DNA of 64,000 nt from Escherichia coli. GTDB lineage: Bacteria > Pseudomonadota > Gammaproteobacteria > Enterobacterales > Enterobacteriaceae. Below, one piece after another: positions 9,250 to 59,497 of the stretch. The position numbers and the translations under genes are program-made. Under the pieces are notes generated by a model. That model was not told the DNA's origin. It did no database searches and saw only the letters and a list, made by a program, of their open reading frames with translations. How positions within the stretch are numbered: the first letter of the stretch is position 1; the number at the start of each line of letters is the position of its first letter. The stretch lies in the NCBI RefSeq assembly GCF_044647545.1, contig NZ_CP172818.1; one strand, 5' to 3'.

Positions 9250-9359
9250 GTTTATTCTCTTTCTGAATATAAAAATGAACCCTCAACGCTTCCCTCAATG
9301 TTTCGGGAGCCATGCGGGTTCAATCATACACGGGAAGCGAGGCGCTTCCCATCACGTTA

Positions 9360-10478
9360 TTATTTTTCAACCTGCTGAACGTCAATTCGACGCGCTTCGT
9401 CCAGCTGACTGGCTTTCGCACGAATGCGCGCTTCCAGCTGGTCGATCATATCGTTGTTGTCCAGACGGTCTTTGCGCACGCCATCTTCATAGAGGCCGCT
9501 TTTCTTGTTGCCGCCGGTGACGCCGAGTGTAGAAACCAGCGCCTCACCTGGGCCATTCACCACGCAGCCGATAATCGAAACGTCCATCGGAGTGATGATA
9601 TCTTCCAGGCGTTGCTCCAGCGCGTTAACCGTACCGATAACATCAAACTCCTGACGCGAACAGGTTGGACAGGCGATGAAGTTGATCCCGCGCGAACGGA
9701 TACGCAGCGATTTCAAAATATCGAAACCGACTTTGATCTCTTCGACCGGATCGGCCGCCAGCGATACGCGCAGCGTGTCGCCGATGCCTTCAGACAGCAG
9801 CAGACCTAAACCAATGGCGGATTTAACCGCCCCGCTGCGCGCACCACCCGCTTCGGTGATCCCCAGATGCAGCGGCTGATCGATCTGTTTTGCCAGCAAA
9901 CGATAAGACTCAACAGCGAGGAAGACGTCAGACGCTTTCACGCTGACTTTGAACTGATCGAAGTTCAGGCGATCGAGATGATCAACATGACGCATGGCGG
10001 ATTCCAGCAACGCCTGCGGCGTCGGTTCGCCATACTTTTCTTGCAGATCTTTTTCCAGCGATCCGGCGTTAACGCCAATACGGATCGGAATGTTTTTATC
10101 GCGCGCACAGTCAACCACCATGCGAATACGCTCTTCATTACCGATATTGCCAGGGTTAATACGCAGACAATCGACGCCGTATTCCGCTACTTTCAGCGCA
10201 ATGCGATAGTCGAAATGGATGTCAGCCACCAGCGGCACGTTAACCTGCTGTTTGATGAGTTTGAACGCTTCTGCCGCGTCCATCGTCGGTACGGAGACAC
10301 GGACGATATCAGCGCCAACACGTTCCAGCGCCTTGATTTGATTGACCGTTGCTTCGACGTCTGTCGTACGCGTATTGGTCATGGACTGTACGGCGATGGG
10401 AGCACCATCGCCAATCGGCACATTCCCAACGTAAATACGTGTTGATTTTCTACGTTGAATTGGAGCCTGGTTATGCAT
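9360..10478 (-). CDS. ispG: 4-hydroxy-3-methylbut-2-en-1-yl diphosphate synthase (IspG/GcpE)
   Basis: 372 aa, [36 protein letters not shown]...; C-terminal CPTCSR iron-sulfur motif. Confidence 0.95.
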
Positions 10479-21161: not shown

Positions 21162-22007
21162 ATGTCCACGACATGGTTTGTAGGAGCCGACTGGCTCGCC
21201 GAACATATTGATGACCCGGAAATTCAGATTATCGATGCCCGCATGGCGTCGCCTGGACAGGAAGATCGTAACGTTGCTCAGGAGTATCTGAATGGACATA
21301 TTCCCGGCGCAGTGTTTTTTGATATCGAAGCGCTTTCTGATCACACTTCCCCGCTTCCGCACATGCTGCCGCGCCCGGAAACGTTCGCCGTGGCGATGCG
21401 TGAGTTAGGCGTTAACCAGGATAAGCACCTGATTGTCTATGACGAAGGTAATCTTTTCTCAGCCCCACGAGCATGGTGGATGCTGCGCACCTTTGGTGTA
21501 GAGAAAGTGTCGATTCTGGGGGGTGGACTTGCAGGCTGGCAGCGCGATGTTCTGCTGTTAGAAGAAGGTGCAGTAGAGCTGCCGGAAGGAGAGTTTAACG
21601 CCACGTTTAATCCTGAAGCCGTGGTGAAAGTCACCGATGTGTTATTGGCAAGCCATGAAAATACGGCGCAAATTATTGATGCCCGCCCGGCTGCACGTTT
21701 TAACGCAGAAGTTGATGAACCTCGCCCAGGTTTACGTCGCGGACATATTCCCGGTGCATTGAACGTTCCGTGGACGGAACTGGTGCGCGAAGGCGAATTA
21801 AAAACGACCGATGAACTGGATGCGATATTTTTTGGTCGCGGCGTCAGCTATGACAAACCGATTATCGTCAGCTGCGGCTCTGGTGTAACGGCAGCCGTGG
21901 TTTTGTTGGCACTCGCGACGCTGGATGTGCCAAACGTGAAACTGTACGACGGCGCATGGAGTGAATGGGGCGCACGGGCAGATTTACCGGTTGAGCCATT
22001 GAAATAA
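21162..22007 (+). CDS. sseA: 3-mercaptopyruvate sulfurtransferase (tandem rhodanese domains)
   Basis: Track ORF 21003..22007 contains MSTTWFVGADWLAEHIDDPEIQIIDARM... after a 53-codon extension; start set to give 281 aa; active-site CGSGVTA present. Confidence 0.9.
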   Translation: MSTTWFVGADWLAEHIDDPEIQIIDARMASPGQEDRNVAQEYLNGHIPGAVFFDIEALSDHTSPLPHMLPRPETFAVAMRELGVNQDKHLIVYDEGNLFSAPRAWWMLRTFGVEKVSILGGGLAGWQRDVLLLEEGAVELPEGEFNATFNPEAVVKVTDVLLASHENTAQIIDARPAARFNAEVDEPRPGLRRGHIPGALNVPWTELVREGELKTTDELDAIFFGRGVSYDKPIIVSCGSGVTAAVVLLALATLDVPNVKLYDGAWSEWGARADLPVEPLK

Positions 22008-22053: not shown

Positions 22054-22469
22054 TGCTGGTCTGTTCCCTCAATATACCAAACACCCACGACACAAACTCC
22101 TAACCTCTTTCAACAAAAAATTTCTTTATTATATCCACTGCGGCCCTTTCCGCCAACTTAAAAAATGTTCGGTAATAAAATAACCTGGCTTATTAGTCCG
22201 AATTCGGACAAATATAAACAAATCAGCTCAATATTAAAAATACTAATCGGTAAAAGATATTACTTAAACGTGTAAATTCACTTTCTTTAAACAACAAAAA
22301 ACCGCCAAAATCAGGCGGTTTTTTGTTGCTGGTTTGGTTCGCGGCCTTTCCAGCAGATTGGCTTGTGTTGCATGAGCAACGCAGGTGCTTCACAGCAAAG
22401 CAATACTCGCCAGTAACTCTCTTTTTGTCAAGCGAAAGAGAGTAATCATTGTTTATTTAGCGTATTATC

Positions 22470-22757
22470 GACACCGGCCCTTTCCGCCGTCTCGCAAACG
22501 GGCGCTGGCTTAAGGAAAGGATGTTCCATGGCCGTAAATGCAGGTGTTTCACAGCGCTTGCTATCGCGGCAATATCGCCAGTGGTGCTGTCGTGATGCGG
22601 TCTTCGCATGGACCGCACAATGAAGATACGGAGCTTTTGTATCGTACTTATTGTTTCTGGTGCGCTGTTAACCGAGGTAAATAATAACCGGAGTCTCTCC
22701 GGCAACAATTTATTGGTGGTTAACAACCTTCAGAACAGCAGGTAAGCCCGAATGCCG
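22470..22757 (+). ncRNA. ryfA: RyfA-family small RNA locus; boundaries approximate
   Basis: Position between sseA and sseB matches where ryfA sits in E. coli K-12. Ends at hairpin ATGCCGCCCTTTGGGGCGGCAT plus ATTTT (22731-22757). 5' end not determinable from sequence alone. Confidence 0.35.
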
Positions 22758-22776
22758 CCCTTTGGGGCGGCATATT

Positions 22777-23553
22777 TTAGATTATCCGGTTCTGTTTAAA
22801 GTCACGCAAAAAACCACCCCAGCGACGTTCATAGAATGGCACAATATGTTCGGTAATAAAGTGGCTAATTCCTTTTTCCCCTTTTTTCACCTGACAAATA
22901 TCGATGGGTTCATCGCCAGGTAATGTATCGGTCGCTACACTTCCCGCCGCCTGAATAATTTCTTCGATATCACCATCGGCTTCAATGCCAATAAGTAAAT
23001 TAGGCTGTGCCTCTTTGTTCTCTTTAATTGAACAAATAAAAGCACGCTTCACCGGCTTAATAGTTTTAAATAAGGTGGTGAGAGAATCAATCATTTGTGC
23101 TGGTGGCTCTGCGACTTCCGATAATATCAGCGATTCACCGCCCTCCAGTACTTCCTGGCTGCTCAGCGGATTTCCTTCTTCACCAATCAACAAACTGATT
23201 TCACGCGGCATAAATTCTTTACCGGTTGGCAGTTTGGCATTAAGGAAGAGCGTTTCGCCAAGGGTCATCTCAAACAATGTGCGAACGGGCATTACGACAA
23301 ATGCCTGTTCGTCTTCAACCGCCTGTTGAAGTGCTTCTAACGAGGTAAAAAAAGGAATGACGCTGGTGCCGTCTTCTTTTTCCCAGTGCTGTAAATCAAG
23401 CGCGCTATCTTCAACCACAGCCTCGCCCTGCGCCGCCGTACCCGGCACCCAGACGGTGGATTCCAGTAGAGTACGGAAAAAGGCCGGGCGGTGCGCCGGT
23501 TCGGTTGCTGCTTTTTCCAGCAGGTCTTCAAGTTCATTTTTTGTTTCGGACAT
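22777..23553 (-). CDS. sseB: Enhanced serine sensitivity protein SseB
   Basis: Track ORF 22777..23562 contains MSETKNELEDLLEKAATEPAHRPAFFRTL... after a 3-codon extension; 258 aa. Confidence 0.88.
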   Translation of the reverse strand: MSETKNELEDLLEKAATEPAHRPAFFRTLLESTVWVPGTAAQGEAVVEDSALDLQHWEKEDGTSVIPFFTSLEALQQAVEDEQAFVVMPVRTLFEMTLGETLFLNAKLPTGKEFMPREISLLIGEEGNPLSSQEVLEGGESLILSEVAEPPAQMIDSLTTLFKTIKPVKRAFICSIKENKEAQPNLLIGIEADGDIEEIIQAAGSVATDTLPGDEPIDICQVKKGEKGISHFITEHIVPFYERRWGGFLRDFKQNRII

Positions 23554-23589
23554 AAGAACCACAATTCATTCAACGTTCGGGGCACAAGT

Positions 23590-30023: not shown

Positions 30024-30134
30024 TGCTCTATAAACTCCGTACATCACTCAATGCAAGGAACCAGGCTACCGGCTGGATGTACGACCGTGTTTACGGAGTG
30101 TTTAGCACTCCGGCCTGATTCTGAATTCTTTTTA

Positions 30135-59311: not shown

Positions 59312-59497
59312 ACAACAAAGCCGGGAATTACCCGGCTTTGTTATGGAATAAGGCGGTGCCTAACTCGACGTTTCGCCCGAGGGTTGATATAGCTACGCTG
59401 ATATCAGAAGTTGGACGGCAGGCACCTTGTTGTGCGTCATTCGAATTTTATGTAGCACGTCCCGAAGGGGCTGACATAAGTCGGTGAATGAGCCACT
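59312..59497 (-). ncRNA. glmY: GlmY small RNA (regulator of the GlmZ/glmS cascade)
   Basis: Minus strand reads AGTGGCTCATTCACCGACTTATGTCAGCCCCTTCGGGACGTGCTACATAAAATTCGAATGACG...AAAGCCGGGTAATTCCCGGCTTTGTTGT, matching GlmY as I recall it; intrinsic terminator hairpin at the 3' end. Not in the ORF track. Confidence 0.8.

Follow-up and report, generated by a model that had tools for sequence, protein, structure and literature searches.

Short open reading frames in the leader of the timP toxin mRNA at the ryfA locus of Escherichia coli

The closest described relative of the locus analyzed here is the timP/TimR pair of Salmonella enterica (ryfA/STnc2070; RyfA1/RyfB1 in Shigella). Overexpressed Salmonella TimP is toxic and located in the inner membrane, and the small RNA (sRNA) TimR represses its translation (PMC7667032). 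We analyzed the ryfA locus in a window of 64,000 nucleotides (nt), the whole stretch of Escherichia coli DNA under study (contig NZ_CP172818.1), in which an earlier note had pointed to two short open reading frames (ORFs), termed ORF-A and ORF-B below, and had considered a toxin-like peptide plausible. The locus is very probably a chromosomal type I toxin-antitoxin pair, timP/timR, with TimP as the sole coding region of the RyfA RNA of about 300 nt. From the comparison of related sequences, ORF-A and ORF-B are judged to be incidental open frames in the timP leader and non-coding.

In Salmonella, stem-loop 4 (SL4) of the timP leader sequesters the ribosome-binding site (RBS), the lower stem of SL1 is needed for timP translation, as found with the compensatory mutants M7/M7', and the SL1-SL3 pseudoknot, formed by pairing of site 1, is essential (PMC11228461). 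Release of the Shine-Dalgarno (SD) sequence requires site 2 (C57-G59) to pair with the 5' flank of SL4, while in the inactive form site 2 pairs with site 1, so that the mRNA switches among site 1-2, 1-3 and 2-4 pairings (PMC13000454). Reconstituted translation depends on the SL1 stem, the pseudoknot and the site 2-4 pairing (PMC11228461, PMC13000454). Neither deletion of SL2 nor a change of AUG53, the putative upstream ORF (uORF) start of Eleftheraki and Holmqvist, to AAG (M1) had an effect on timP translation (PMC11228461).

Other type I systems resemble timP in part. As in tisB/IstR-1, a stable hairpin contains the toxin RBS, 30S recruitment requires an upstream pseudoknot and the antitoxin binds far upstream of the RBS (PMC13000454). 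However, tisB mRNA needs nuclease processing for activity whereas timP mRNA switches by refolding alone, and the two sequences are not homologous. The divergent chromosomal pairs such as zorO/orzO likewise have non-overlapping RNAs with a pairing repeat of 18-19 nt (compared in PMC5333039), but zorO belongs to another toxin family, and timP uses a structural switch instead of processing. Superficially alike are also hok/mok/sok of plasmid R1 and CopA/repA, where a short ORF precedes or overlaps a structured toxin RBS and an antisense RNA binds there.

The timP/timR locus and its toxin frame

A covariance search with the Rfam ryfA family (RF00126) fixed the RNA, whose presence at this place the earlier note had presumed, at 22474-22778 on the plus strand. 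The match scored 314.5 bits against a gathering score of 80 and covered the full model (1-296 of 296). The +1 position was placed at 22476 through a gap-free alignment of the leader to the Salmonella enterica locus (L123), in which, with the TimP ATG set as +145, all published landmarks (PMC11228461, PMC13000454, PMC7667032) were reproduced, namely AUG at +53-55, G56-C57-C58-G59, UAG at +77-79 and UAA at +259-261. Accordingly numbered, ATG 22521 of the window is +46, ATG 22528 is +53 and ATG 22620 is +145. The timP/timR locus lies between sseA (ending at 22007, plus strand) and sseB (22777-23562, minus strand), flanks common to E. coli, Salmonella and Citrobacter, and timP (b4812) and timR (b4811) are annotated at the homologous positions of K-12 MG1655.

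With Salmonella timP/TimR the window shares the sseA-sseB site, the +145 TimP start, SL1-SL4, the pseudoknot, the site 2-4 pairing and a divergent TimR complementary to SL2. It differs in TimP length (41 vs 38 amino acids, aa) and in the divergent C-terminal half of TimP, in lacking the STM2534-like ORF, in the length of the +53 frame (31 codons vs 8 in Salmonella), and in an IS128 element with what looks like a truncated ryfA 5' end upstream of timR. The characters of a type I timP/TimR locus were found together: a TimP ORF, the leader structure, a divergent complementary sRNA and the sseA-sseB context. The locus, including the region of both upstream ORFs, is already known from the published system.

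The match of the timP frame to NCBIfam NF040796 (toxic_TimP) scored 79.8 bits over 22620-22742, above the cutoff of 45, and RefSeq annotates timP at the homologous position. The exact 41-aa protein was present on 998 contigs, named TimP, in a collection of about 15 billion proteins. For comparison, 26 ryfA copies were gathered, each with a confirming Rfam match; their sources were Escherichia (K-12, E. whittamii and E. marmotae among them), Shigella flexneri, Salmonella, Citrobacter, Superficieibacter, Yersinia, Rahnella, Erwinia and Kalamiella. A contig scan for the SL4 pattern gave at least 120 loci, mostly chance matches in GC-rich genomes (15 of 120 were enterobacterial among the matches listed), and missed Salmonella; the Salmonella, Citrobacter, Shigella and Kalamiella copies came from a TimP profile search and contig look-ups. 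The TimP ATG and frame were intact in all 26 copies, from 9 genera, with a length of 38-42 aa, and every insertion or deletion inside the ORF was a multiple of 3. In an RNAcode-style test, which scored observed minus expected BLOSUM62 given the nucleotide changes against a null of alignment-column shuffles, TimP gave P = 0.0003 and was the sole frame with a significant coding signature. Its best hydropathy window, CIVLIVSGALL, reached 2.90. By analogy with Salmonella, TimP of the window would be a small toxin of the inner membrane whose signal-like N-terminus stays uncleaved. The statement of the earlier note that ryfA RNAs encode a small toxic membrane protein holds for the family and at this locus, whereas its placement of a toxin-like peptide was half right: the locus encodes one, but this is TimP, a frame that the note had not listed, and not either of the ORFs it named.

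Two further ATG-ORFs on the plus strand overlap in the region, at 22538-22684 (48 aa) and 22608-22745 (45 aa). The latter (MDRTMKIRS...) starts 12 nt upstream of timP, in frame with it, in the SL4 loop and 3' arm; this longer form is the TimP version used in a paper on uropathogenic E. coli (PMC8205139), and it also appears in some Citrobacter annotations. It was rejected as the true start because Salmonella, Rahnella, Erwinia and Y. similis have AAG in place of ATG 22608, and because the validated Salmonella start is at +145.

The antitoxin gene timR lies divergent from timP. Read from 22396 to 22297, it was identical to K-12 timR (b4811) at 90 of 101 positions, including all of the first 26 nt, and a hairpin (22292-22328) with a U run behind it is its terminator. 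The two genes share a 19-nt direct repeat (22378-22396 and 22537-22555, 17 of 19 identical, both differences being C/T), so that the first 19 nt of TimR and timP 22537-22555 could form 19 contiguous base pairs, 2 of them G-U. A whole-molecule RNAduplex comparison of TimR with timP was uninformative (-66 kcal/mol, against a shuffled mean of -56.6 and a minimum of -84), and the pairing is judged by the contiguous 19-bp duplex at the 5' end and by the repeat. A consensus promoter scan called neither the timP nor the timR promoter; the promoter assignments are based on homology and direct reading of the sequence, and the same -35 and -10 motifs stand at the same place upstream of Salmonella timR.

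Coding test and RNA structure of the upstream frames

What the earlier note had seen in the letters is largely real and statistically unremarkable. The motif AAGGAAAGG does stand directly upstream of ATG 22521, and the 24-codon ORF-A encodes the peptide exactly as quoted, with a hydrophobic run of 14 residues (F10-L23; best 11-residue Kyte-Doolittle window 2.55). The overlapping ATG of ORF-B was also found, its frame being 31 aa and not the 33 codons given. When the 305-nt ryfA sequence was shuffled with dinucleotides preserved, an ATG-ORF of at least 24 codons occurred in 65% of the shuffles, and in 8% such an ORF had an SD-like tetramer upstream. NCBIfam families matched none of ORF-A, ORF-B and ORF-C, and the exact ORF-A and ORF-B peptides were absent from the collection of about 15 billion proteins.

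No codon-level conservation was detected across the homologous loci for either ORF-A or ORF-B, an outcome that the earlier note had named as refuting its proposal. The coding test gave no signal for ORF-A (P = 0.74); the values for ORF-B and ORF-C were 0.09-0.13 and 0.72, respectively. In the ORF-A frame, the synonymous fraction of changed codons was 0.10 against 0.22 in the null, and changes per codon position were 25/22/14, position 3 being the lowest, which is the reverse of a coding pattern. A pairwise-codon score for ORF-B (z = 4.2-4.8) was discarded since the pairs are phylogenetically dependent, and the column shuffle gave a P of about 0.1.

The starts and stops varied among the 21 ryfA copies with an intact SL1. 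ATG plus 24 codons of ORF-A was kept in 10 of 21 copies, Salmonella enterica among them. The start codon was missing in 7, where it was replaced by ATA (S. enterica subsp. salamae), TCG (one Citrobacter), AGT (three Yersinia), AAT (Erwinia) or CGT (a Salmonella island copy), and the product was altered in 4, through a stop at codon 6 in E. whittamii, a frameshift in S. flexneri and loss of the stop in two Kalamiella copies. For ORF-B the start was ATG, GTG or absent (no start codon in 9 of 21 copies), and where started the frame ran for 8, 18, 20, 23 or 31 codons.

The leader structure was counted on an alignment of 21 sequences, using the Rfam and published SL1 lower and upper stems, SL2, SL3, SL4 and the pseudoknot. 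Over the whole structure 96.7% of cells were paired, compared to 38-51% when the 3' partners were slid, and 13 pairs were compensated, a number reached in 0 of 500 shuffles. The lower stem of SL1 (22479-22485 with 22514-22520) was 97.3% paired with 2 of 7 pairs compensated, and the SL1-SL3 pseudoknot (22503-22509 with 22577-22583) 99.3% paired with 4 of 7 compensated. The site 2-4 pairing (22530-22535 with 22597-22602) was 100% paired with none compensated, one pair varying on one side; the site 1-2 pairing was 94% paired with 1 of 5 compensated. SL2 was 96.4% paired, and SL3 92.5% with 3 compensated pairs. All 7 pairs of SL4 were invariant in the 21 sequences and give no covariation evidence either way. 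The published C57/C58/G59 correspond to 22532-22534, and a polymorphism at 22531 (G to A) substitutes a residue in ORF-A and also in ORF-B, while in the RNA a G-U of the site 2-4 pairing becomes A-U.

These pairings bear directly on the 'good ribosome-binding site' of the earlier note, which was not confirmed. GGAAAGG abuts ATG 22521 with 0 nt between them, the upstream AGGA leaves a spacer of 4 nt, and the distance to ATG 22528, a more suitable one, is 6 nt. In both the minimum free energy and the centroid fold, GGAAAGG was paired with CCUUUCC (22479-22485). ORF-A would thus lack an accessible, properly spaced RBS, though SL1 might open transiently. On the covariation, GGAAAGG reads as a helix arm of the conserved SL1 and not as an RBS. 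The sequence of ORF-A and ORF-B would be conserved because it builds RNA elements, not protein. The TimR site spans codons 6-12 of ORF-A, as expected since this same stretch is the SL2 target for the control of TimP. In Shigella, a green fluorescent protein fusion to the putative RBS and ATG of ryfA1, with a predicted 30-aa product, yielded no protein (PMC5333039). This 30-aa ORF may be the homolog of ORF-B. The features are listed in Table 1.

Table 1. Features of the timP/timR locus in the window
Feature	Position	Strand	Remarks
timR (antitoxin sRNA, RyfB-like), divergent from timP	22297-22396	-	ends inferred by homology
Putative timR promoter	22403-22431	-	-35 TTGACA 22431-22426, 17-nt spacer, -10 GAGTAT 22408-22403; read directly
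ryfA RNA = timP mRNA	22476-22778 (inferred +1 at 22476; Rfam match 22474-22778)	+	Rfam RF00126
SL1 lower stem, 5' arm (CCUUUCC)	22479-22485	+	pairs with 22514-22520
Site 1 (CGCUGGC), pseudoknot arm in upper SL1	22503-22509	+	pairs with 22577-22583
SD-like motif AAGGAAAGG	22512-22520	+	3' arm of the lower stem of SL1: GGAAAGG (22514-22520)
ORF-A	22521-22595	+	24 aa, MFHGRKCRCFTALAIAAISPVVLS; AUG at +46, in the 5' untranslated region, in frame with timP
ORF-B	22528-22623	+	31 aa (32 codons including stop); AUG at +53, in the 5' untranslated region; published putative uORF
Site 2 (GGCCGU)	22530-22535	+	pairs with site 4 (active) or site 1 (inactive)
TimR-binding site, SL2 5' side and loop	22537-22555	+	SL2 stem 22540-22547 with 22554-22561
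SL3, including pseudoknot site 3 (GCCAGUG, 22577-22583)	22563-22596	+	pairing counts
SL4, hides timP SD (GGA, 22610-22612)	22597-22616	+	site 4 = 22597-22602
timP coding sequence	22620-22745	+	41 aa, MKIRSFCIVLIVSGALLTEVNNNRSLSGNNLLVVNNLQNSR; NCBIfam, RefSeq, coding test
timP intrinsic terminator hairpin	22752-22773	+	terminator scan and Rfam consensus 3' hairpin

Possible roles of the leader and its open frames

By the mechanism described in Salmonella, the first 144 nt of timP mRNA would act as a regulatory leader of four stem-loops. The linker with the +46 and +53 AUGs would lead into site 2, followed by SL2, the TimR target, and SL3. The SL3-SL1 pseudoknot together with the site 2-4 pairing would free the TimP SD from SL4, which hides it and at the foot of which the UGA of ORF-A lies, and pairing of TimR with 22537-22555 would block the switch. 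This analysis established the family membership and anatomy, the signatures of coding and of non-coding sequence, the covariation and the complementarity of TimR, while toxicity, membrane location and the switch mechanism are taken from the literature.

Several points weigh against reading the upstream frames as non-coding. The published timP mutants cover the +53 AUG and the SL2 deletion, and the +46 AUG lies outside that set. The coding test used 15-18 related sequences and a home-made score, and the ORFs of the majority E. coli allele were read in one genome, SK1144. Counting copies that lack the start, 16 of 21 have an ORF-A frame free of stops over 24 codons, and in the two Kalamiella copies this frame runs into TimP; occasional translation of ORF-A may be possible in some lineages. 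Frame openness was rejected as coding evidence, frames B and C being also largely open, and for ORF-A it is uninformative because stops are rare in the GC-rich conserved leader.

It is possible, if tentative, that RyfA is also a trans-acting RNA whose 5' part is conserved partly for target pairing or ProQ binding, which would be compatible with a non-coding leader of timP. Alleles with a destroyed TimP-like ORF complemented the phenotypes of ryfA deletion in uropathogenic E. coli (PMC8205139), and overproduction of Shigella RyfA1 lowered ompC mRNA (PMC5333039). RyfA has also been the subject of papers on avian pathogenic E. coli, one of which concerns ProQ binding. However, no target pairing site is defined in the published RyfA work consulted, and the conserved and covarying positions are fully explained by the published intramolecular switch.

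Far less probable is that low-level initiation at ORF-A serves as a second, pseudoknot-independent route to TimP, a lineage-specific modulator where the +46 AUG is present. The lineages concerned might be those of the window allele, K-12, S. enterica subsp. enterica and Rahnella. A ribosome on this route might open up SL2-SL3 and stop 2 nt short of SL4, and in Kalamiella, with ORF-A in frame and its stop lost, it might produce an N-terminally extended TimP. Any functional role for the +46 AUG was likewise rated low because of the SL2-deletion result and the comparative data.

Very improbable, too, is a regulatory uORF, in which translation of ORF-A or ORF-B would unwind SL2-SL3, end at the foot of SL4 and aid the start of TimP, with TimR blocking it. 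Such coupling was raised by the authors of PMC7667032, and its geometry fits: the ORF-A stop (22593-22595) precedes SL4 by 2 nt and the TimP AUG by 24 nt, and the stretch that TimR binds lies inside both ORFs. SL2 also lies inside both, yet its deletion, like loss of AUG53, leaves timP translation unchanged in Salmonella (PMC11228461), and the elements on which reconstituted translation depends are instead the SL1 stem, the pseudoknot and the site 2-4 pairing. A uORF of this kind is expected to be conserved and required for downstream translation. The upstream ORF of hok/mok is both, whereas the starts and stops of ORF-A and ORF-B are unconserved, unlike TimP and unlike the RNA structure, and timP translation in Salmonella needs neither the +53 start nor SL2.

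Finally, that ORF-A is translated as an independent, toxin-like membrane peptide of 24 residues is hardly credible: it has an ATG, an SD-like motif, a hydrophobic C-terminal half, a start and frame kept in nearly half of the copies and an overlapping TimR site, but its hydrophobic run is only 14 residues long, its motif, at 0-4 nt from the AUG, is tied up in a covarying stem, its coding signal is null with few synonymous changes, its start or frame is lost in several genera and in the majority-allele E. coli representative, its peptide is missing from the protein and family collections, and an ORF of such size arises by chance in most shuffles.

Allele types, rearrangements and annotation of the locus

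Across 5,426 complete E. coli genomes, the SL2/TimR-binding region (22537-22561) occurred as three discrete allele types, with counts of 1,973 for the window/K-12 type, 2,982 for the E. whittamii type and 548 for the third. The upstream timR-like sequence matched the SL2 allele type in each case examined. The alleles resemble toxin-antitoxin 'specificity types', the RyfA1/RyfA2 siblings of the literature. In SK1144, which carries the majority allele, ORF-A reads MFRDR followed by TAG at codon 6 and the ORF-B start is GCG, with TimP intact.

K-12 has two timR-like modules (1057-1156 and about 1380-1480 in L002). The annotated module directly follows sseA and matches SL2 of K-12 timP as its cognate, while the second adjoins ryfA and its 5' end, GCAAGCGCGTCTCAGCGG, fits SL2 of the majority E. 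coli/E. whittamii type. The window is without the sseA-proximal copy, having unrelated sequence at 22056-22131, and its cognate copy adjoins timP. The two arrangements suggest mosaic recombination between allele types.

An IS128 RNA (Rfam RF00125, 188 bits) was matched at 22138-22338, between sseA and timP, as also in K-12. A 23-nt copy at 22132-22154 is 87% identical to the promoter-proximal sequence and first SL1 bases of ryfA (22466-22488); after it the element consists of unrelated AT-rich sequence and shares a bidirectional terminator with timR. Taken as a whole, the element (22132-22338, plus strand) has the look of a shortened copy of the 5' end of timP.

SL1 and both promoters were missing from five of the 26 ryfA copies, in which the timR-antisense module was fused straight to SL2; these copies came from E. 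marmotae, C. farmeri, C. amalonaticus, Y. aleksiciae and Y. similis. Recombining the window in silico between the 19-nt repeats gave a sequence nearly identical to the E. marmotae copy. Judged by these junctions, deletion through the toxin-antitoxin complementarity repeat appears to be recurrent, in three genera, and to leave the TimP ORF intact. In E. albertii, a 63-aa 'hypothetical protein' runs from MTVNAGTPQCLLSRQYRQWCCRDAV directly into RCFCIVLIVSGALF...; here the frame of ORF-B continues into TimP, apparently through a deletion that took out SL4 and the start of TimP, and the entry probably reflects misannotation of a decayed locus.

Additional copies were found in other genomes. Kalamiella carries two tandem ryfA/timP copies (1053-1353 and 1545-1845 in L130) between psiE and ubiC-like genes, and with the ORF-A stop lost (CGCGAA) the +46 frame reads into TimP for 72 aa. 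In Salmonella serovar Winslow a copy of a second type, with a 39-aa Yersinia-like TimP, adjoins a DNA methylase gene, which suggests that it lies on a mobile island. Some E. coli have two timP genes; in FDAARGOS_497 (34-159 and 716-841 in L134) a partial sseB pseudogene stands between them, and the second encodes a TimP identical to that of the window. Up to 3 matching places per genome were seen in an initial search. Elsewhere in the window, Rfam matched the GlmY sRNA (59350-59497, 145 bits), an iscRS stability element (30025-30134, 136 bits) and the sroE sRNA (9269-9360, 117 bits), all on the minus strand and consistent with the E. coli chromosome around 57 min.

For annotation, the labels of the locus should be timP (coding sequence 22620-22745) and timR (22297-22396, minus strand), with no gene entries for the two upstream ORFs. 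More generally, it illustrates that a structured leader can give rise to an SD-like motif with an ATG and a hydrophobic frame behind it; here the purine-rich 'RBS' would be the arm of a conserved helix and the 'hydrophobic peptide' a by-product of GC-rich stem sequence.

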